Assembly (NCBI GenBank): GCA_963733195.1
Contig: CAVTCR010000066.1
Location: forward strand, 1-52,106
Source of the DNA: an uncultured delta proteobacterium
Lineage (GTDB): Bacteria; Desulfobacterota; Binatia; Bin18
DNA: 52,106 bases
Reading direction: 5' to 3'
In this document: positions 17,837 through 46,629 of the stretch, piece after piece
How positions within the stretch are numbered: position 1 is the first letter of the stretch
Layout of the letters: each line of letters begins with the position of its first letter
Program-made: the position numbers and the translations under genes
The notes under the pieces: model-generated
The model's database searches: none
What the model was told of the DNA's origin: nothing
What the model saw: only the letters and a program-made list of their open reading frames with translations

Positions 17837-18256
17837 ATCTGTAGTCCTCCTTACAATTGTTTATGGAATGTTAACTCTCTCACTGGCGGTGAAAATAATA
17901 ACTCGGCAATTCTTTCAATTTCATCCCACGCGTCGCAGGCGACCTCGCCCTTTTCCAGCGCATCATCGATCGAGTTGGGCTGGCTGTCAACCGCAAACCG
18001 CCACGGCACCGGCGTGAGGCAGAGCAAAAGCTCAAGAGGGGAGAAACAGGAAAACGAACCTTTCGGGGATTGGAATGAACCTGAAAGGCTACGGTCTCGG
18101 CGGCAACCCATGACGGCGAGTAGCGATATCCAAACAATGCCAACACGCAAATGGGAGTCTGTAAGATATTGAACAATCATGATATTCGGGTAAACCAGTC
18201 CAAGAGGAGTACTCTCATGATAGTACTCCTGTCAGGAGAATACAGAGAAGACTAGT

Positions 18257-33912: not shown

Positions 33913-34024
33913 CGAATGGCGCCGGGGCGACGCTCACGTATACGGCATCATCGTGAAGAATGTTATAAGCTGAGCCCATTTCACTGGCATAGCTTGACTA
34001 CAGAAAGGTCAGCAACGCCACATC

Positions 34025-35044: not shown

Positions 35045-35232
35045 ACGGGGTTACACAATTTGCGTGTCCACGAGCGCAAGCGTCGGACCTGCGAGAATTA
35101 AACCCCAAACATCTGATCGCCGAAATCGGCTACGGCATCCTCTGTGAAGAATGGTTCAAGCTGAGCCCAGTTGTCACTGGCATACGCTTCGTCAAAGCGG
35201 CGGCATACGCCACAAACGCGGTAGGTCCCATA
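35045..35232 (-). pseudogene. SnoaL/NTF2-like cassette gene remnant
   Basis: Cassette start GTTAGGGAGAAAGTTATG; translation across an indel FVAYAAA-DEAYASDNWAQLEPFFTEDAV, then broken. Confidence 0.4.
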
Positions 35233-35286: not shown

Positions 35287-35643
35287 CTACGGTTCACTTT
35301 CTTCTTCTTGACTCGCGCTCAACATCTTCTCAACCGCTTGCTTCAGCTCTGGAATATCCCGTTGAGTAATGTCCCAGACCATGTCCAGATCGATCCCGAG
35401 ATAATCATGGACCAAGATGTTCCGGAACGCCACAATCTTTCGCCATTCAACATCTGGCTGTGTTGCTTTCGTGGTCTCGGACAGCCGCTGTGTCGACTCG
35501 GCCATAACTTGTAAATTGCGTAACACAGCATCTTGTAGGGTATGCGATTCCATAAAGCGCTCGTGCCCTTCCACAATGTCTTCTGTAATCCGCCGAATGC
35601 ACTCTAGAACATGACGCAGATAGACGGTATCGTCTTTGTTCAT
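35287..35643 (-). CDS. HepT-like HEPN RNase toxin (DUF86)
   Basis: DAVLRNLQVMAES, FRNILVHDY (RxxxxH-Y); overlaps the MNT gene by 4 nt. Confidence 0.9.
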   Translation of the reverse strand: MNKDDTVYLRHVLECIRRITEDIVEGHERFMESHTLQDAVLRNLQVMAESTQRLSETTKATQPDVEWRKIVAFRNILVHDYLGIDLDMVWDITQRDIPELKQAVEKMLSASQEEESEP

Positions 35644-35933
35644 AAGGGAATGGCCTCGCGGAGCACGCGATTACGCAGGTATGGATTGAGGGCTTTCTCA
35701 GTGACAATCTCGACTCTCCGCCCTAACATCTCTTCGAGATCCAGCACCAAGCCTGCGGGGAACCAGGAGCTAGTCGTCGGGCCTTTCTCGATGAGCAAAT
35801 CAATATCGCTTTCGGGGCCAGCGTCCCCTCGTGCTACCGAACCGAAAACGCGGACATTGTAGGCCCCGTGTTTGGCTGCGATCCGTCGAATGTCCTCCTT
35901 CCTATCTTGCAAGAGCTTCAGTAGAGTCATCAT
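35640..35933 (-). CDS. MntA-like minimal nucleotidyltransferase antitoxin
   Basis: FGSVARGDAGPESDIDLL (GSx10DxD). Confidence 0.9.
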   Translation of the reverse strand: MMTLLKLLQDRKEDIRRIAAKHGAYNVRVFGSVARGDAGPESDIDLLIEKGPTTSSWFPAGLVLDLEEMLGRRVEIVTEKALNPYLRNRVLREAIPL

Positions 35934-35950
35934 TCACTCCTTGGACTCAT

Positions 35951-35979
35951 AGTATTAATGACTGTGGTCATTCGATCAA
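35951..35979 (-). promoter_or_regulatory. Cassette-internal promoter/operator of the MNT-HEPN TA
   Basis: Minus strand TTGATC-17 bp-AATACT with palindrome AATGAC-CACA-GTCATT (35957-35972) in the spacer. Confidence 0.5.
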
Positions 35980-35989
35980 GGCAACTGAT

Positions 35990-36085
35990 ACCTAACGCCG
36001 CGCGCGTGCCGCGCCGGGAATAACGCGGCGTATCCTTATTCACGCATCCCACGTTCCCGGTGTCGGCTCGAAGCGCTTGTTAGCC
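35990..36085 (-). other. attC site
   Basis: Minus strand R'' GGCTAAC 4 nt after the stop of the 352-aa gene, R' GTTAGGT, inverted arms CCGACACCGGGAA/TTCCCGGCGCGG. Confidence 0.82.
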
Positions 36086-36089
36086 CTCG

Positions 36090-37127
36090 TCAGCGTAGAA
36101 TGACGGGTATACCATCTTCATACTCGATATTAATATATTCCTCGTGCATTACCTCTTCAAACTCTCTTCGGTAACGAGGCTTCATATTCGCAAGCACCTG
36201 GGAGACTATGTCGTCTACCGCAGCTTTGATTTTCTGTAACTCTTCGATTCCAAGCTCGCTTATCGAGTTAGGGACGATTCCTTCGCGTACATCGTCTGGA
36301 CTTAGCAGAAACGTGAAGTCGTCATGGTAGACTACAGCCGTCCTCATGCTCTTTGTGACGTTGGCGTGGATAAAGTCATTCCTGGCGTTGACCAAGCGAT
36401 GGAAGTTTCGGAATACCTCGGTTGTATGGTCGATTGGCTTACCGGCGAAGCAATCACAGTAGATAGGTGCAAGTCGTAGCTTCACATCAATTTGCTCGCG
36501 AGCCAGCCGGTCAACAATTCGGTCCTCCCGCAGCTCTTCTTTGAGATAGATCTCGTAGACGAGATTCAACAGACCTTCTATTGCAGCGACAAACTGGAAG
36601 AAGGCGGCTCGACACAGGGTGTAGTGAGTGGACCAGTCTCCTAGCTTAACTGTTGCGGCAGATAGGTCGACATCCATTGTCCGAAGTTGCTCGGCGATCG
36701 TCAAGAGTTCCTCGGCAGTTTGATAATAAAGTGCGAAGGGGTTCTGGATGACTTGGCCAGGAGGGTCCTTTTTCAGGCTCGCAATTAGCGCTCGGTGCTT
36801 TATTGAGGCATGAGCCACCTGTCTTTCGAGTTCTTTAAGGAGACGTTCAGAGCGAACCTCATCCTTATTCTTTTCGTAGACATGAATGCTCCAGCTATCA
36901 AGCTTCCAATCATTGACCTCGATCAGAGCGTCCTCAGTCTTGATGAAGAAGACCCACTGCTGCTTGCTCTCGTCGAGATGCTCGGTATTGGGCTCTCCGA
37001 ACAGCGACTTGAGACCCAGGTACGCCTCTAGGGGAGAAAGCGTTGAAGGTCGTGCGAAACCAGTTCGATCGTTACTATCGACCGATAATTCTTCAGGCGT
37101 CGCGACGGAGAACTTGATCTTCGACAT
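36090..37127 (-). CDS. Cassette-borne hypothetical protein with C-terminal HEPN-like RNase motif
   Basis: Intact ORF between two attC sites; AAIEGLLN ... LVNARNDFIH (E + RxxxxH); likely ATG at 37127. Confidence 0.65.
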   Translation of the reverse strand: MSKIKFSVATPEELSVDSNDRTGFARPSTLSPLEAYLGLKSLFGEPNTEHLDESKQQWVFFIKTEDALIEVNDWKLDSWSIHVYEKNKDEVRSERLLKELERQVAHASIKHRALIASLKKDPPGQVIQNPFALYYQTAEELLTIAEQLRTMDVDLSAATVKLGDWSTHYTLCRAAFFQFVAAIEGLLNLVYEIYLKEELREDRIVDRLAREQIDVKLRLAPIYCDCFAGKPIDHTTEVFRNFHRLVNARNDFIHANVTKSMRTAVVYHDDFTFLLSPDDVREGIVPNSISELGIEELQKIKAAVDDIVSQVLANMKPRYRREFEEVMHEEYINIEYEDGIPVILR

Positions 37128-37142
37128 GACGATGATGTCGGG

Positions 37143-37291
37143 GTTCAACGGCTCGCCCAGATCAGCTGGCGCGCTGCCCTCAATCCGCCGGCGCCGCCGC
37201 CACCATCACGGCAGGCACCGGGTCCCATGATGGCATGAGCGGACGGCATAGCTCAAGCGAGAGGCACGTCAGCTCTATTGGCTTGTTAGAC
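37143..37291 (-). other. attC site of the retron cassette
   Basis: Minus strand GTCTAAC-AAGCCAATAGAGCTGAC ... CAGCTGAT...GTTGAAC, starting 6 nt after the repaired RT stop codon. Confidence 0.78.
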
Positions 37292-37297
37292 GGCATG

Positions 37298-39009
37298 CTA
37301 CACGTCGTGGAGAATTTGCTCGCGAATCCGCTGGAAAACCTGAAAGACAGGGACCAAACCCTCCGAAGTCAACGGCATCAAAGGGCTTCTCTCCAGCCGC
37401 AACGAGATCAAGAGAAAGCCGACTTACTAAGCGCTACGTTCTTCCTTGTAGCGATGTCGATGACCGTCTCAAGAATGACCGACTTCGAGTTGGGATAGGG
37501 GCAAGAGACATCATTCGTTGCGTGGGCACCGGTGGAAAGGTCAAACTCGGATCGCGCGAAGACGCGCCGTCCCTCGCTGTCGGCGGTCTTGAGGATTGAG
37601 TCTTCGTAGAGAAGCTCGACGCAGAGTGAGAAGGAAGGATTGCGATGAGGAGGTACTGGAAGCGCGAAGGAGTAGACGCCGTTCCCCCAGTTCTTGTAGG
37701 AGCCGGCGTCTTCGACCTGCGCGACGACTAGTGGGGAATCTCGGTCGAAGATGAAGACGCACGAAACCGCCTGGTGCGTTCCTGCGAGCATCTCGCATCG
37801 CTTGAGGAGGTCTTTGTCTCCCTTCGCGTGGTGAATCTGGAAGTCGAGGTCAATCTCCGGGAAGAGGCCATCTACACGGAGACGCTGCAGGGCGGTCCGA
37901 AGATGCGTGTAGTCGGTCTTGCCTTCGCAGAACACACGAAAGGGCATCTGCGGCCAGATGGACGGCCGGGTCGTAGGCTTGAAATCCGTGTCTAGAGCGG
38001 CGAGCCGCGTGGCGAGCCTACGATAAACCGGGTGATGCCAGCCTTTAACGGAGCCGAGATACTGGATCTTTCCTCGGACTACGTAGCGGAACTTCGGCAT
38101 CGACTTGGCCTGCGGACGATTCTTCCGATCTCCCTTCTTGAAACTGGCCTCGGCCGCAGCTTCTCCATGCTTTTCCCACACGTAGATGAGATTGCGGAGT
38201 GAACGGACGTACTTCTGGGGGACGTTTGGGAACTCATTGGCAACCAGACCGGTTACGAGCTGCCGCTGCGTGCGATTCCGCAGAACTGTCTTCGCAGCGT
38301 TTACGGTGAACCCGTGCTTCTCGACGATCTCCCGTAGCGCTTCACCAGCGACGACTGCACCAGTCTGCCGATCGGTAACGGCAAGGGACTGGGGAAACGC
38401 GCGACGACGAGTCGAAAAGACAAGATCGTCGCAGTAGCGCGTGTAGTAGCAGTAGTCCTTCCGGGCCTGGAGAGACAACGCTCGGTCAAGCCCACGGCAG
38501 ATGATGTTTGAGATCAGCGGTGAGGTCGGGGCTCCGTGGGGCAGTACGTTGTCGTGGCAGCAGATCTGCGCGAGCAGCGTGGCCACGTCGGGCATGTAGT
38601 TGAATGGCGGAGCCATGAACATTCCGCGCACGCGACCGAAGTTGATGGACGGGAAGAAATTCTCAAGATCAATGCGGAGAACCCACAACTGGCGCTTGTG
38701 CACCCTTGCGTTGGTCAGAATGCTTCGGGCACTGACGTACCCGTGAACGAAGGGAGGAGGCTTGTAAAACGACTTGAGTAGGGTAGCGAGTGTACGCTGG
38801 ATCTGCTTGATGGGAGCAATTGGAGCGTGGATGACCCGAGTACCCGTACCAGAGCGACGTTTGAGCTCGAACCGCTGGTAGCGATTCTTCGCGGGAAGCG
38901 CATAGAACCAGTAGTTGAGCTTCTTGAGCGGAAGACCGAGAGCGTTCGCAACCTGCGAGGTGGTGTACAGCGGTAACGGATGGTCGAAGGAAAGGGCGCC
39001 GTCTGACAT
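37298..39009 (-). CDS. Retron reverse transcriptase fused to C-terminal TOPRIM nuclease (Ec67/Eco2-like, type I-C)
   Basis: Region X NARVH, DLENFFPSI, LPHGAPTSP, YTRYCDDL, region Y LVTGL; TOPRIM CEGKTD and FDRD; C-terminus SKSAFSDLV...DFGGF.PVF recovered across indels to the stop at 37298; ATG at 39009 follows the ncRNA. Confidence 0.92.
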
Positions 39010-39019
39010 ACAGAGTATT

Positions 39020-39167
39020 CGGGGTGCGGCTCGGTTGTTCAACCTATCGCGGTACAGGGCTATGAACATGGAACCCTGGACATGCGCGCACGCAGCACGC
39101 TAAAGCAGAACGTCCGATAACCGTGGCGAGTACGCCGCGGAAAAGCAACCCATCGAGCCGCACCCCG
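39020..39167 (-). ncRNA. Retron msr-msd non-coding RNA
   Basis: Perfect 14-bp inverted repeat CGGGGTGCGGCTCG (39020-39033 / 39154-39167) enclosing hairpins CCGCGGCG-TACT-CGCCACGG, GGACGT...ATGTCC and a TGTTCA...TGAACA msd-type stem; ends 10 nt before the RT ATG. Confidence 0.85.
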
Positions 39168-39171
39168 CCAC

Positions 39172-39200
39172 ACCCTAGCACCTCATACACCGCCAGTCAT
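39172..39200 (-). promoter_or_regulatory. Cassette-internal promoter for the retron
   Basis: ATGACT (39200-39195), 17 bp, extended -10 TG-C-TAGGGT (39177-39172); predicted start site falls at the 5' repeat arm. Confidence 0.6.
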
Positions 39201-39206
39201 CATGCC

Positions 39207-39301
39207 GGCTAACGTCGCCGGTCACCTGCCGCCCACCGTGGCTGTTCGGCTTCAGCCAGATCCGCCAGCGGGCGGCGATGCGGTGCAGCGCCTGGTTCGT
39301 C
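39207..39301 (-). other. attC site
   Basis: Minus strand GACGAAC-CAGGCGCTGCACCG..GCCGCCC ... GGGCGGC..GGTGACCGGCGAC-GTTAGCC. Confidence 0.82.
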
Positions 39302-39361
39302 GTTCTTGCCGGACCAAGGGAACCCCTCCGGCGCGTCCCACTTGGTAATCAGCAGGGCCCA

Positions 39362-40299
39362 CTATTCGACATCGACGCGGCTCTCGGCAATCAGTTCATC
39401 GACCTTGGGGAGCGGCTCCGGCGAGTTGGGCAGGTTGGACCGGGTCATCGTGATGTCCAATCGGAAGGTGTTCGGCTCCATCTCGCCGTGTTCCCACTCC
39501 TTGTCCGTCTCCTCCCACGCCTCGTTGTCGATCAGCCCTAGCGCGTACCACTGCCTGTCGGGGACGACCACGCTCTTTTTCAAGTGGTCGTAGTAGCCCA
39601 GGGACACGTCTGTCTTCACGGTCTGGGCCACCCAATCCTCTCAACAGTGAAATGGAACTTGAGGCCTCCGACCATTAGCGATTGCCCGTGGTAGGACCAG
39701 CGCGGCTCGTGCCGGAACATACAGAGGAACCAAATCCTGTTGGCCATGTCGTGCTCCGAGGCCACGAGCTTCATCTTCTCGTTGATCCAGTGGATCACCG
39801 GGAGGCCGTCAAACAGCAGGTCCTCGACCTTCCACTTCTCCTCGATCTCGTGGGGGTGCCCGTCGAACGGGTAGAGGGAGGCCGTCTCGAAGGTCAGGGT
39901 CAGGCGCCGCGCGACCACCTCGCGGTGGACCCTGATCTTAATCGTATCGTCCTTCGCCTTCATCGCGGACGCCATCTCGATCCCGACCCGGTTGGCCTTC
40001 TTCAATGCATCCCGTGTGAAGCCCGAGTCACTGAACATGATCGCCCGGTCAGGCTTCAGGTCGCGGATCTTCGACTCGAACGCATCGATGAAGCCGATCC
40101 CGATGGGCCTAGCGTGGTCTTTGCACTCGACCAAGATGAAGTGCGGGACGCCGTTGAGCGTGCCCCGGACTTCCACGTCCATATCCCGCTCGCCGTCCGG
40201 CCCTGTGATCCACTGCTCCGTCTTCACGGCCGAGCCGGGGTCGAGGGCCACCATGACCGTCCCGACCAGCTCCCGGTACTCATCACCTGCTTTTGCCAT
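39362..40299 (-). CDS. Cassette-borne PD-(D/E)xK restriction-endonuclease-like (Mrr_cat type) protein, one frameshift near 39630
   Basis: RDMDVEV...ILVECKD, SGFTRDA; ORFs 39616..40299 and 39362..39631 join; no cognate methylase in the cassette. Confidence 0.78.
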
Positions 40300-40479: not shown

Positions 40480-41700
40480 ATGAAGTTTGACGATCAAAAT
40501 CGGTAATATAGAACCATCTCAGGCAGCTGGAGCAACGAGATGGCAATCCGACGAACATTGAGGCTAAAGACGCGGGAGCAACGAGAACTGGAACATTACC
40601 GGGATCATGATGCGCGGCCCTACGTGCGCGAGCGATGCAGCGCCTTGCTAAAGGTCGCGGCGGGTGAGGCACCGCATGCCGTGGCGCGCCAGGGAGTGCT
40701 GAAGCCGCGGGACCCAGACACCCTCTATGGCTGGTTGACAGTCTATGAAGAGGAAGGGGTGGCCGGGCTCGTGGCCCATCAACAGGGTGGGGACCGCCGG
40801 AGGTTGCTTCGAGGAGTGCGCAACCGTGAAAGAGGAACTGTTGGAGACCCTGCGCGCGGGGCCGGGTGAGGCCGCCCGCCGGGAAGTGGCAGTGACAAAG
40901 ACTGGCCCCGCCCCGAGCCGCTGGACGCTGCGCACGATTCGCGCGTCGGTGGACTGGCTGACGGACTACACGGTGAGTGGGGTGTGGCGGGTCCTGCAGG
41001 CCTGTGGGCTGGGGCTCCACGCCGCGTGCGCCCGCTTGTTTAGTCCCGATCCCGACTATCGCAGCAAGGTCCGGCGGCTGCACCGCTGTCTGCGCGACGC
41101 CGCGCGTCACCCCGATACTGTGGTCGCGCTGTTCTTGGACGAGTTTGGCTATCAGCGCTGGCCGGAAGTCGCGCCCACCTGGGGCTTGGAGGCGGCGGTC
41201 GCGCAACGCGCAGGCAACAACCAACAATGGCGCACCATTGGAACGCTCAATGCCCTGACTGGACAAGTGAACTACCTCGATGGGTACATCGTCGGGCGAC
41301 AACAAGTGATTCAGTTCTACTCCCAACTCGACCGTGCCTATCCCGAGGTGGATCCGATTTACGTGATCCAAGACAATTGGAACATTCATACCCATCCTGA
41401 GGTGTTGACTGCTCTGGCACGCTACCCCCGCATCACACCGGTGTGGCTGCCTACTTATGCTCCCTGGCTCAATCCCATTGAGAAGCTGTGGCGCTGGCTG
41501 CGCCAAGACATCCTCAAGATGCATCGCTGGGTGGAGGATTGGCCTCGGGTCAAACAGCGGGTCCACGATTTTCTCGATCAATTCGCGCATGGTTCTGCCG
41601 CTCTGCTCCGCTATGTCGGCTTGATCGGCAAAGGCAAACTCGCCACCGTGCTCAACTCCTCTTGATTACCTGATTACCGAACTTGCTTGTCAAACTTCAT
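40480..41700 (+). mobile_element. IS630-family insertion sequence inside the intron
   Basis: 28-bp imperfect terminal inverted repeats beginning ATGAAGTTTGAC, TA duplication (40478-79 / 41701-02). Confidence 0.92.
40540..41665 (+). CDS. IS630 transposase (HTH orfA + DDE orfB, frameshifted)
   Basis: FLDE, IQDNWNIH, WLPTYAPWLNPIEKLW. Confidence 0.92.
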
Positions 41701-42282
41701 TAGGAGGTTCACCTTCATGAATCGCAGGATACATGAAGCTAACTACAGTCCAAGGCAAGGGCGTCACCGCGAGGTGAGGTCTGAAGGAAGCCGGCGACGG
41801 TACGGCGAGGCGAGGAACACGAACGCTATAGAAGGCTCGTTTCCCTGGGACGAGTTGGCACAACACAACGAAGTCCTGTGAATCGGGGGATAGGGTAAAT
41901 GGCGCGCTTGTGCCGTAACCACTCACGGTCTTATCCGGGGAGATCTGCTCCGCGTCCTGGGAAGTGGCGTGCCACGGAAATTGACTGCGGGGAGGAGTAA
42001 TCCTCTCTGACCCGGAGCAGCAGTCAGCCGAGGTCATAGTAGCTCAACATCCTTCGGGGTGCCGAGTGAAGGACCGAACAGGGAGGACAAGGCGGAGGCA
42101 TGACCGCCTCGACGACGCCAGACCCGAACCAGGCGGCGGCTCCGCGGCGGAGGGTCATCGACCCAGCCTTGGGCGAGACTGTCTGACTTCCCATCCTGCC
42201 TGAACCGCCTAGTGCGGACCCGCATGCTAGGTGGTGTGGGGAGGGCGATCAGCGATGATCGCCCTTACCCGATTGGGCCGCG

Positions 42283-43459: not shown

Positions 43460-44682
43460 TCATGGTGGTAGCCCTCGCTGCGGCAGGAGGCGGGCAATCC
43501 TGTGCCAGTGCGTGCCAGCACAGTGGGGGCAGGGAGCGGCGGCGGTAGGTGAGGGAGCCGGGTCGGTGGCTGGCACTGACCCGGGAGACAGGAGAGGAGT
43601 CGCGGCCACGAGCGCCAAGAGCTGGCGGGCGCGAGCGAGCTTGGCCTGCCGTGTGCGATTAGCCAGCAAGCCATAGTGGCGAATCCGTACGAACCCGGTG
43701 GGCACGACGTGGAGCAGGAAGCGGCGGAGGAATTCTGTAGCCTGCAGTTCCATGAGTTTCGTGCGGCCTTGGGTCGCATAGTCTTTATACTGAAAGCGCA
43801 CGACGCCGTCGCCGACAAAGACCAAACGTGAATTGGCGATGGCCACCCGATGGGTGTAGCGGCTGAGATACTTCAGCACCTGCTCGGGACTGCCCCAGGG
43901 CGGTTTGGCATAGACCACCCACGGGTTTGGCGTAGAGCTGGCTGCCGCAAGGAATTCCATGCGGCCTCCTCGGCCCACGCGGCACTCGCGCCGGCAAAGG
44001 TCAGCCGCTGCTGACTACGTAACCGCTCCAGCCCCGCGAGATACTTGCCCCGGAAGACTGCGCCCAGGGCTTTGACGGCAAACAGAAAGCGGCGGTGACA
44101 GGCGTGCCATTGCGTGCCGTCTGGACTCAGGCCTCCGCCCGTCACCACACAGTGCACGTGAATATGCTCGGTCAAGGTCTGGCCCCAGGTGTGGAGAACC
44201 GCCGTGATGCCGAGTTCGGCCCCGAGATGTTTGGGATCACGGGCAAACTCCTGCAAGGTCTGGGCGGCGGTTTGGAACAATAAGTCGTAGAGGGTCCGTT
44301 GGTTCACGCGAATCAGAGGATTGAGTTGATGGGGTAAGGTGAAGACAACGTGGAAGTAGGGCACCGGTAGCAGCAAGGCCTGCTCCGCAGCTAACCATTT
44401 GGCACGTGCACTCCCTTGGCACTTGGGGCAGTGCCGATTGCGACACGAGTCGTAACAGACCCGCTCCGTCCCGCAACTCACACATTGTTCGACATGCCCG
44501 CCTAACGCTGCTGTCCGACACTGCGCAATGGCCCGTAAGACGCGCGCTTGCTCGTGCGAGACCGCATGCGTGGCCCGAAACGCTGCGCCATACGCCCGCA
44601 CGATGTCGGCGACTTCAAAGGGCGGAGGCGAGGGATGAGCGAGAGCGGGAGGCGCTGTCGAAGGCAACGACAGCGGCAGCAT
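43460..44682 (-). CDS. IS91-family HUH (Y2) transposase with Zn-binding domain (frameshift near 43930)
   Basis: CRTAALGG...SCRNRHCPKC, HVVFTLP, LHTWG..EHIHVH (HUH), YLSRYTHR, EFLRRFLLHV..GFVRIRHYG. Confidence 0.93.
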
Positions 44683-44685
44683 CGG

Positions 44686-45535
44686 TTATCCCGCCGCCTC
44701 GACGTCCGGTAAGCTCTCCAAGGGTGACCCGTGCGCGGTCAGATGATGTTGCGCGAGGTGCACGTAGTGCATGGTGGTCGTCACACTCTCGTGGCCCAGC
44801 AACCGTTGCAGAGTTGCCAGATCCGCGCCGCCTTCCAACAAGTGGGTCGTAAACGCATGGCGCAACGCATGAATGCCGCCCGCTTTGGTAATGCCCGCGC
44901 GCTCCTTGGCTGCGTAATACATGCGTTGCGCTGTCTCGATGGGCATCGGCGCCGGCTTGCTTTGCCGGGGGAAGAGCCACGGTGGGGTCGGCCGATACAA
45001 CTGCCAGTAGCGGCGTAACTCGGCCACGAGGCGTGGGCCGAGCAAGCGTGTAGCGATCCTTGCGCCCTTTGCCTTGTTCGACGCGCAGCATGCCGCGCCC
45101 GGCGTCAATGTCACTGACTTGCAGGCGCACGACCTCACTGACGCGTAACCCACCGCCATAGGTGGTCATCAGCAGGGCACGCTGGCGCACGGTGGTCGTA
45201 CTGGCCAGCAACCGCGCCACCTCTTCGCGACTGAGCACTTCCGGCAACGTCTTGGTCCGCTTGGGTAAGGGCACATTCGGCCAGGGCCGACGGAGGGTCT
45301 GCGTGTAGAAAAACCGGATGCCCATGATGGCCACCCGCACGCTGCTGGCCGAGAGGTGGCGCTCTTCAATCAGGAACCGAATATACGTCTGGAGTTGCGC
45401 CTCACTGAGCGTGTCGGGCCGTTGGTGATAGTACTTGGCGATGCCCTGGACTGCCGTCAGATATGCTTCTTGCGTCCGGGGTGCCATCCCATGCAGAATC
45501 AGCGCCTGCTGCATCCGCTCGCGTAACTCGCCCAT
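44686..45535 (-). CDS. Tyrosine recombinase (IntI/Xer-related, no IntI-specific insertion), frameshift near 45045
   Basis: [37 protein letters not shown]...TTMHY; start MGELRERM with RBS AAGGAGG. Confidence 0.92.
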
Positions 45536-46629
45536 ACTGACCTCCTTGGCGTCCGTGGCCTCCACGACCACGACGCAGTAATTTGAGGAGGTCATGACGC
45601 ATAAGGATAGGAGTTGCCAAGCCTCGGAGCGAGGACACGATAGCAACAGAAGAAAATTTCACTGGAAGTTATGAACCGAGGAGCCGCCGCGCAGCGGTTT
45701 CGTTCAACTTTAATTCAACGGCAATGCTCCTGGCTATTAGCAGAAACATCTTCCTAGCAATAGCCAGAACGGTCTACCGGTAGACAGCTCTATACGTATA
45801 TTAGTAGGAACATTTATCTGGCTACATATGGGAAGTTTTCCAAAAGCCCTGCAAAAATACTGAAAGGGCATAGTCCTTTTTTGTCCGTTTAATCCTCACT
45901 TTCCGATCAGTTTGTGAGATCAATAAAAACAACCACTTGCCCGTCCGGTAAATCAGTCCGACATTCCGTACACAATTTCCAACAGCAAGCATCAACGTTT
46001 CCTCTATGATGCCGATACCGCCTCTGAAGCCACGTGTTTCTCCCAACGTCGCGTGGCTAGGGCACGGGGGATGGTCTCCCGTGCTCCTCCTGTACGCTCC
46101 TGCCACCACTCGCAGAAAACTTCAGAAAACAATTCTCTCCTCCGTGTTTTGGCTTGGTGAAAATGGGCGCTAGCAAGCGCGCAAACAGACACTCCTGGTG
46201 CGGCCTTTCGGGATCATTCACAAATTGTTTTTGATGCAAAGGAAATCAGGAGGTTAGAATAGGGCGAACTTGACATACGGGCCGCTTATCGGACATTGAC
46301 GGAGGTAGAGAAGTTTTTCAGGTCAAATTGAACGGAAAAAGCGAAAGCGACTTCCGCCAGGAGCAGAAATTGAGGCGAGAGAAGCTGAAGCCAAACGAAG
46401 AAAATGATGGAAATAGAGAGTGGCTCTAACGCACCTTACTAATTTCTAAATAGCTCCACACTCGATGGAAAGTGATAATCTATTGCGCATAACTGTAAAA
46501 CAAGCTCTACGCCGCTCTCTTGGCGGCAGAAGCTCATTCGTCTGTTGAGTGCCACATGTAGCACTTTCCGTCCAATGTGTTTCTATTTAGGTGAGCGATA
46601 ATGTATGAATGTGGAGTACTGAAGATAAT

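Follow-up and report, generated by a model that had tools for sequence, protein, structure and literature searches.

A probable integron cassette in a Binatia genome carrying a single-gene RT-TOPRIM retron and a divergent attC site

Can a complete retron, with its promoter, its non-coding RNA (ncRNA) and its reverse transcriptase (RT), be packed into a single integron cassette? The question is raised by one contig (C66) of a 6.9-Mb metagenome-assembled genome (MAG) in 87 contigs from an uncultured delta proteobacterium of the Binatia; the window analyzed here is this entire contig of 52,106 nt. An earlier note, made from the letters of the sequence, had described an Ec67-like retron in the window as a self-expressing integron cassette. 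Our analysis indicates that the unit 39212-37149 is probably one integron cassette containing a complete single-gene RT-TOPRIM retron, with promoter, ncRNA and RT-effector fusion. All retron and cassette features of this finding lie on the minus strand, for which coordinates are given. The features that make up the proposed unit, and the site preceding it, are as follows.

39207-39301, minus strand: attC of the preceding cassette (top-strand R'' GACGAAC 39301-39295, R' GTTAGCC 39213-39207)
39172-39200, minus strand: candidate ncRNA promoter (-35 ATGACT 39200-39195, 17-nt spacer, TG 39180-39179, -10 TAGGGT 39177-39172)
39020-39167, minus strand: predicted retron ncRNA (msr-msd), 148 nt (arm a1 39167-39154, arm a2 39033-39020)
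37298-39009, minus strand: RT-TOPRIM gene, about 569 amino acids (aa) after reading through two 1-nt insertions (stop TAG 37300-37298)
about 38970-37975, minus strand: RT domain (YCDD 38436-38425)
about 37962-37301, minus strand: TOPRIM domain (EGKTD 37926-37912, DRD 37746-37738)
37149-37291, minus strand: candidate atypical attC belonging to the retron cassette (R'' GTCTAAC 37291-37285, end at G 37149 of GTTGAAC)

The protein was placed by profile matches. The open reading frame (ORF) as assembled (39069-37408, 553 aa) matched Pfam RVT_1 at 5.1e-17 and 58 PADLOC families, the best 25 of which were all retron RT models, in agreement with the earlier placement of the RT among retrons. The top PADLOC matches were RT-TIR_XII (482 bits, 4.8e-145) and RT-Toprim_I-C (414 bits, 2.8e-124), and the 12 best distinct PDB matches, obtained by sequence profile and by Foldseek, were retron RTs by name or entry title. 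The RT active site YCDD is intact (residues 192-195). In an alignment of 61 sequences, D194 and D195 of this site were invariant, as were the TOPRIM residues E362, G363 and D366 (EGxxD) and D422 and D424 (DxD). Table 1 of Mestre et al. (PMC7736814) gives EGxxD and DxD as the motif IV and motif V signatures of I-C1 and I-C3 RT-TOPRIM retrons, and the motif pair in the window fits either type. When the C-terminal 188 aa were scanned alone, RT-Toprim_I-C (73.7 bits, E 3.5e-21) scored above one RT-TIR_XII model (49.4 bits).

Among solved structures, the best match to the profile of the 61-sequence alignment was retron Eco2/Ec67 (9lm3/9i2f; 309.6 bits); most of this score came from the RT, and weak collinear matches were also present at the TEGKTD motif and the C-terminal helix. 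An AlphaFold (AF2) model of the RT-TOPRIM protein had a predicted local distance difference test score (pLDDT) of 91.0 and a predicted template modeling score (pTM) of 0.57. Foldseek aligned this model to Eco2 over 551-554 columns (E ~1e-32, best 2.6e-32) with a template modeling (TM) score of 0.45, a low value that would be expected for two domains posed differently.

The gene is likelier to start at ATG 39009, where homologues begin, than at the 5' end of the assembled ORF, and its RT frame is open over 39009-37411. Compared with P0026, a 293-aa fragment 92% identical to the RT-TOPRIM protein (3' half of the RT) and encoded on a JGI contig of 3080 nt, the assembled gene has an extra base after ...KSAFS (37410) and another after ...DFGGF (37354/37355). 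Reading through both insertions gives the C-terminus ...REQILHDV, followed directly by the TAG stop. Because the base at 37410 is absent from metagenome contigs of two other sequencing runs (X1 and X4), the first frame break, at least, is by this comparison not common to relatives. Long-read assembly errors are the most likely source of both frameshifts.

Relatives of the protein were numerous but distant. A collection of 5.8 billion proteins yielded 761 matches at E<=0.001 among 8000 scored candidates, and the full-length RT-TOPRIM relatives were 560-575 aa long and at most 58% identical. The best match in a plasmid collection was a Herpetosiphon plasmid RT (39% identity over the full length), which had no usable cassette context. 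In 400 other genomes of the phylum no RT match was found at E<=1e-80, a result that fits horizontal arrival of the retron. Sequencing runs matching the window numbered 24, with small shares (0.05-0.13).

Upstream of the gene, the earlier note had proposed a 148-nt RNA closed by a perfect 14-bp repeat, and both were found. The arms, CGGGGTGCGGCTCG at 39167-39154 and its complement at 39033-39020, close 148 nt with a predicted folding energy of -71.2 kcal/mol (z -4.33; 0 of 200 shuffles as good), and arm a2 ends 10 nt 5' of the RT ATG. When perfect inverted repeats spanning 130-190 nt were sought, the longest upstream of the RT had 14 bp, against 7 and 6 bp in two windows of equal size within the gene. 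Close to its 5' end the RNA has an msr-like hairpin (CCGCGGCG/CGCCACGG), and the msd part includes a hairpin, TGTTCA...TGAACA, in the portion that would be copied first. Our placement of the msr/msd boundary, of the branching guanosine and of the length of the multicopy single-stranded DNA (msDNA) is guesswork.

Conservation of the repeat upstream of homologues had been named beforehand as a condition of the retron reading. We collected 18 loci of relatives with ~38-45% identity in which the gene start was included; most of these were cyanobacterial and the others metagenome contigs, and several were near-duplicates, the independent count being nearer ten. An inverted repeat spanning 140-193 nt (mostly 140-165) with at most one mismatch per 10 bp was present upstream of the RT in all 18 loci. 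Perfect repeats of at least 9 bp occurred in 16 of the 18 versus 5 of 36 same-sized control windows within the RT gene, and perfect repeats of at least 12 bp in 8 of the 18 versus none of the 36. RNAalifold, applied to 13 of the loci after near-duplicates and two long forms had been left out, predicted the a1/a2 stem and one msr hairpin, with compensatory changes in 15 of 24 pairs. The sequences of the repeat arms differ among lineages and the layout is constant. Clear sequence similarity between the RNAs is confined to a motif adjoining a2, which reads TAGGTTGRAATA in the relatives and ATAGGTTGAACA in the window. At gathering score, Rfam returned two group II intron pieces for the window and no retron ncRNA match, and at E<=10 it gave no match over 38950-39320. 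In the cyanobacterial relatives (loci L013-L035), the msr half is well conserved (GATTGATTCCCGCTGTTGATCCTGCGGCGG...) and the msd hairpin is variable; judged by their sequences, these RNAs look like a coherent, undescribed retron ncRNA family without an Rfam model.

The extended -10 promoter reported in the earlier note is present as a sequence, TGcTAGGGT at 39180-39172. It lies 4 nt 5' of the repeat, with ATGACT located 17 nt upstream. A TAnnnT hexamer ended 4-6 nt before a1 in all 18 relative loci, as counted by eye.

Whether the retron is a cassette depends on the integrons of the genome. A full integron integrase (IntI) gene was found on contig C33 (20009-20953; 477 bits, cut-off 265), a cut-off passed by none of 14 control genomes, and IntI fragments were found in at least three other places (C32:15705-16079, C1:40645-40977 and C41:10690-10938). 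In each of these four places the integrase gene or fragment is directed at nearby attC sites, on the same strand as most cassette ORFs, an arrangement that we take to be the 'inverted' one and not the usual divergent layout. Simple R-box scans (RYYYAAC...GTTRRRY plus scores for fold or arm alignment) could not tell arrays from background and were rejected as a detection method, although they gave seeds for a family model. Starting from five hairpin sites with CTAAC...GTTAG ends near IntI genes, an nhmmer profile was built in successive rounds and grew to ~70 sites of ~100 nt over ~30 contigs. The sites form arrays in the same orientation with 0.5-3.8 kb spacing (for example C24:53178-65504, C55:2130-7586 and C34:1755-8642). 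The family is homogeneous, ~95-105 nt long, with the pattern CTAAC...CACCGCG.GCCGCCC...TTCAGGTTCA..CAGAACCGCAA...GGGC.GCGATGCGGTG...GTTAG.

A covariance model of the family (R1), built from 20 sites on other contigs, has 18 pairs with 91.4% of 360 cells paired; none of 500 shuffles reached its covariation score. It detected 63 sites in the genome at E<=0.001. From these attC sites, this Binatia MAG seems to have a chromosomal integron that is very large or fragmented. Extrahelical bases mark the L'' side of attC. Because the model has extra unpaired bases on its 3' arm and 16 of 23 segments between sites have their longest ORF on the other strand, the modeled strand is the recombining bottom strand. 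Run on the window with filters off, R1 detected two full attC sites and one partial core; these two sites and the atypical candidate site described below are all in one orientation. On 20 loci of RT relatives R1 gave no match at E<=1, and these relatives are therefore outside arrays of this attC family.

The 5' boundary of the retron unit coincides with one of the detected sites. R1 matched 39192-39315 (plus strand, the bottom strand) with 68.6 bits and E 8.1e-15, and the third nhmmer round gave E 1.7e-18. The retron cassette starts at TTAGCC, after G 39213, so that its 5' end falls on the G|TT crossover of a bona fide attC. The second detected site belongs to the next cassette, which is needed here to define the 3' boundary.

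35990-37148, minus strand: next cassette, with ORF352 (37127-36090, 345 aa) and its attC (36085-35990)

The attC of ORF352 was matched by R1 at 35975-36099 (23.5 bits, E 8.4e-4), and the R boxes close the single long hairpin into which 35990-36085 folds (z -2.27). At the 3' end of the retron gene, the earlier note had placed the repaired stop 6 nt from R'', as we found it: CATGCC separates TAG from the R''-like heptamer GTCTAAC. The first 24 bases of this candidate 3' attC include 18 that are identical to the R'' side of the next attC, which itself starts 4 nt after the ORF352 stop, and a 9-mer shared by the two sites has 25 occurrences in the genome. A possible L''/L' pair, AGCTGACGTGC/GCGCGCCAGCT, pairs at 9 of 11 positions by hand count.

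The two ends of the proposed cassette are complementary, as the earlier note had claimed. Our score counts complementary positions between the first 13 bases of a cassette and the 13 bases up to the end of its own R''. For the retron unit, GTTAGCCGGCATG (39213-39201) and CATGCCGTCTAAC (37297-37285) pair at 12 of 13 positions, which is expected when one attC is split on integration. Across the 29 adjacent attC pairs of the genome, 13 scored at least 10 and the maximum was 12. Among 3408 cross-contig control pairs, 99 scored at least 10, 16 reached 11 and none reached 12. When the ends were joined in silico, both strands folded with a 12-bp closing stem at ~-41 kcal/mol (z -3.0 to -3.4).

The junctions were also checked in Logan contigs of four soil or rhizosphere runs (X1-X4), aligned to 35800-39500. 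A 332-nt contig of run X1 (record 8) matched the RT start and the whole ncRNA over 39005-39213 with 6 mismatches and 4 gaps; the match ended exactly at 39213, and the remaining 127 nt did not fit the window. Another contig of the same run (record 4, 832 nt) matched ORF352 over 36792-37134 with 24 differences over 343 nt, and beyond 37134 its sequence contains the beginning of a family attC (...GGGGTCTAACGC...). Because this contig puts a family attC before ORF352 at the same junction, ORF352 is an independent cassette with its 5' junction at 37143-37149, starting G|TTGAAC, in agreement with the boundary given in the earlier note. Over 37164-37287 the four runs gave short unrelated GC-rich pieces alone, and among the contig pieces listed none spans 37300-37140. 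In view of these boundaries we consider it rather likely that 39212-37149 (2064 nt) is one cassette with a divergent long attC.

Several results weigh against the reading of this unit as one cassette with a complete RT-TOPRIM retron, and they are considered here together with the alternatives. The NCBIfam family retron_Ec67_fus (NF038237) matched the protein with 323.3 bits, below its cut-off of 450, and the RT half scanned alone scored 423 bits with type XII, 393 with XI and 334 with I-C. Since the RT scores higher with XII and XI and the Ec67 cut-off is missed, we file the protein, on profile evidence, as an RT-TOPRIM retron of Mestre clade 8, type I-C in the wide sense, outside the Ec67 family proper; I-C3 may be its subtype. 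The same RT scores, the top whole-protein PADLOC match and the top NCBIfam match, Retron_TIR_antiphage (NF042941, 335.7 bits), would favor a type XII (RT-TIR) retron. However, the NCBIfam match is below its cut-off of 600 and aligned to the RT part alone (profile positions 3-329 of 464), and the C-terminal 183 aa had no TIR match in Pfam at E<=10, the sole match being DUF3226 (E 0.1). The preference of the C-terminal domain for RT-Toprim_I-C, the invariant EGxxD and DxD and the full-length Foldseek alignment with Eco2 also argue against a TIR effector, and we rejected type XII as extremely unlikely. The gene has two frameshifts as assembled, and contigs from other runs contradict only the first. 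If both, which fall within the last ~40 codons, were real, the protein would end at 37408 without the conserved C-terminal helix, and the retron would be inactive. The assembled sequence itself favors such a decayed retron, as does the presence of the conserved tail (...F..F.P.F...) in the 560-575-aa homologues. Against it, the X1 and X4 contigs have no extra base at 37410, each change doubles a single base, and the remaining ORF is open with all catalytic residues kept; decay is unlikely, but we give it some weight. On the RNA side, a covariance model of the relatives' ncRNAs (R2, from 13 loci) missed the window ncRNA at 39020-39167 and gave 17 matches at E<=10 elsewhere in the window (best E 0.41), leaving the layout as what argues for homology with the relatives. 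Because this model misses it and Rfam has no match, the retron RNA is, at the level of its sequence, new, as the earlier note had thought probable. A consensus promoter scan of 36900-39400 found no sites because the -10 hexamer matches the consensus at 3 of 6 positions; the sequence suggests a weak promoter of the extended -10 type.

For the cassette itself, the opposing results concern the integrase and the 3' end. No IntI is encoded on the 52-kb contig, and the integrase is available in trans only, from contig C33. A tyrosine recombinase in the window (44615-45646) was considered as an IntI and discarded, since it adjoins an IS91 transposase and the segment specific to IntI is missing from it; it matched the IntI profile in two pieces (94.7 and 71.2 bits) that leave profile positions 164-239 unmatched. 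The 3' site was unmatched by R1 even at E<=10, had no similar sequence elsewhere in the genome by nhmmer or blastn, and is 143-149 nt long, family sites having ~95-105 nt. The integrated form of 37143-37291 folds into three local hairpins with the R boxes unpaired (z -0.30; 67 of 200 shuffles as good), and in the comparison of joined and integrated forms the integrated site gave z -0.1 to -0.6 without closure. The z of the joined form partly reflects the 12-bp stem itself, and its shuffles were mononucleotide. Each metagenomic junction comes from a single low-depth Logan contig of one run. The downstream attC proposed in the earlier note is thus outside the attC family of this genome. These properties of the 3' site would fit a two-gene cassette running from the attC at 39207-39301 to that at 35990-36085 and carrying both the retron and ORF352, with 37143-37291 as a spacer or dead attC, so that the retron could not move alone: the attC model finds just these two full sites in the window, and the spacer folds no better than shuffles and is unique in the genome. 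Yet the X1 homologue of ORF352 directly follows a family attC at the same point, the R''-like heptamer lies 6 nt after the RT stop, where 18 of 24 bases are shared with the neighboring attC, and no control pairing equals that of the cassette ends. The two genes also differ in GC content, 0.51 in the ORF352 cassette versus 0.585 in the retron cassette. Homologues of ORF352 were found neither in the examined loci, including the flanks (<=3 kb) of RT homologues, nor elsewhere in the genome, for which reason ORF352 was also rejected as a partner of the retron. We judge the two-gene cassette to be quite improbable. Arrival by a non-integron route, with the attC-core likeness of the ends due to chance, would agree with the absence of IntI from the contig, with the IS630, IS91 and group II intron fragment within 6 kb and with the failure of the 3' site in the attC model. 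It would leave to coincidence that both ends match the G|TT crossover points in an attC array to the base and pair to a degree seen in none of the controls, and is very unlikely. A single retron cassette with a divergent 3' attC therefore remains our preferred reading.

The surroundings of the retron cassette contain further cassettes and the remains of mobile elements.

39362-40299, minus strand: upstream cassette, encoding a 227-aa protein with an Mrr_cat restriction-endonuclease domain (Pfam, E 1.6e-5)
within 39362-40299, minus strand: 89-aa ORF without matches, overlapping the Mrr_cat-type gene
35287-35933, minus strand: MNT-HepT toxin-antitoxin cassette (NTP_transf_2 nucleotidyltransferase and HepT-like RNase, overlapping at an ATGA stop/start)
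18061-18095, minus strand: partial attC core, central loop alone (R1 20 bits, E 0.006)
40745-41665, plus strand: IS630 transposase gene, just upstream of the group II intron pieces
41763-42074, plus strand: group II intron domain 1-4 RNA pieces (RF02001, 108 bits; RF01998, 48 bits)
43873-44682 and 43460-43978, minus strand: IS91-family transposase, split into two ORFs
44615-45646, minus strand: Xer-like tyrosine recombinase, split by a frameshift and adjoining the IS91 transposase

The neighboring cassettes carry conflict-type genes: the Mrr-like nuclease, the MNT-HepT pair and a possible HEPN protein. The last is ORF352, which had no family match in Pfam, PADLOC or NCBIfam. It contains RNDFIH, an Rx4H motif as in HEPN RNases, and its nearest clusters in a protein atlas are unnamed hypothetical proteins (0.97), with HEPN families as weak leads (0.77-0.78); from its sequence, ORF352 may be an unrecognized HEPN defense or toxin cassette. 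A 43-nt mini-element lies 3' of the MNT-HepT stop, from GGCTAAC (35282-35276) to GTTAGGG (35246-35240), and falls short of the length of a normal attC. Non-coding parts of the cassette-like region contain a 29-nt direct repeat (33953-33981 and 35144-35172; 86% identity); its minus-strand copies (...GCTTATAACATTCTTCAC and ...GCTTGAACCATTCTTCAC) may be degenerate R''-side remnants. The isolated attC core at 18061-18095 is far from the other sites and is probably a remnant. Beyond 40.3 kb the array is interrupted by the IS630 transposase gene, the group II intron RNA fragment and the IS91 element with the Xer-like recombinase. No plus-strand ORF of at least 110 aa follows the group II intron pieces, which are on the strand opposite to the cassettes and could be the remnant of an attC-targeting group IIC intron.

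Of the known retrons, Retron-Eco2 (Ec67) of E. coli, type I-C1 (9lm3, 9i2f, 9s1f), offers the closest comparison. As described in PMC12916289 and PMC7736814, Eco2 likewise consists of a single gene with the ncRNA directly upstream. Both proteins join the RT to a TOPRIM domain at the C-terminus that contains EGxxD and DxD, and both have a conserved C-terminal helix. The identity is ~24-25% in the Foldseek alignment, and the active site is YCDD here versus YADD in Eco2. Unlike Eco2, the window retron has a GC content of 58%, lies in an integron cassette under our reading, and has an ncRNA without detectable similarity to any Rfam family. An RT of clade 8 type and its fusion to an effector are shared with the clade 8 retrons tabulated by Mestre et al. 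2020, in which the effector is TOPRIM (I-C1, I-C2 and I-C3), a protease (XI) or TIR (XII). The table of that paper (PMC7736814) gives the ncRNAs of I-C3, XI and XII as not determined.

In Eco2, according to PMC12916289, the nuclease is held caged in trimers of msDNA-linked RT-TOPRIM; once a phage nuclease has degraded the msDNA, TOPRIM cuts tRNAs. By analogy, we infer that the window retron would work in the same way from promoter to abortive infection. The weak extended -10 promoter inside the cassette would transcribe the ncRNA and RT together, and the RT would prime from a guanosine just after a1 and reverse-transcribe the msd part to give a short msDNA. The nuclease would stay caged in the complex of msDNA and RT-TOPRIM until a phage factor that degrades or alters the msDNA freed TOPRIM, which would then cut tRNA or other RNA and stop translation, leading to abortive infection. 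IntI acting in trans from contig C33 could excise and reinsert the cassette, and the atypical 3' attC may make both steps inefficient. Promoter activity, msDNA synthesis and excision are all features that we infer from the locus.

The general idea that defense systems travel as integron cassettes has already been published: the main text of Darracq et al. (10.1101/2024.07.02.601686) reports 783 known defense systems in integron cassettes. The retron unit resembles the cassette systems described there and by Kieffer et al. (10.1101/2024.07.02.601719) in being a small one-gene system between attC sites. Retrons are not named as cassettes in either main text; the word 'retron' does not occur in that of Darracq et al. 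and occurs twice in that of Kieffer et al., about phage escape mutants. A literature search found no text presenting a retron as an integron cassette, the per-type lists of both studies being in their figures and supplements.

A bolder interpretation, which we put forward tentatively and hold to be doubtful, is that the lineage is I-C3 and that its missing ncRNA is an RNA of ~145-190 nt, closed by a1/a2, whose -10 box has a fixed position and which carries a conserved TAGGTTGRA motif beside a2. In the same interpretation the retron would be an autonomous, self-promoted integron cassette with a non-canonical attC, long and branched, whose closing 13-bp stem would form only when the cassette is an excised circle. 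If true, it would provide a natural test of how far attC structure may depart from the norm and yet recombine. The 3' attC itself is a concrete substrate for asking what the integrase really needs. For the RT-TOPRIM branch without a characterized RNA, the relatives supply an ncRNA layout supported by covariation, and the compact, high-GC RT-TOPRIM retron with defined ends is a testable unit. A full retron with promoter, ncRNA and RT-effector fusion in 2.06 kb fits the size limit of an integron cassette, and such a cassette would offer a route for shuffling retrons between soil bacteria without phages or plasmids.

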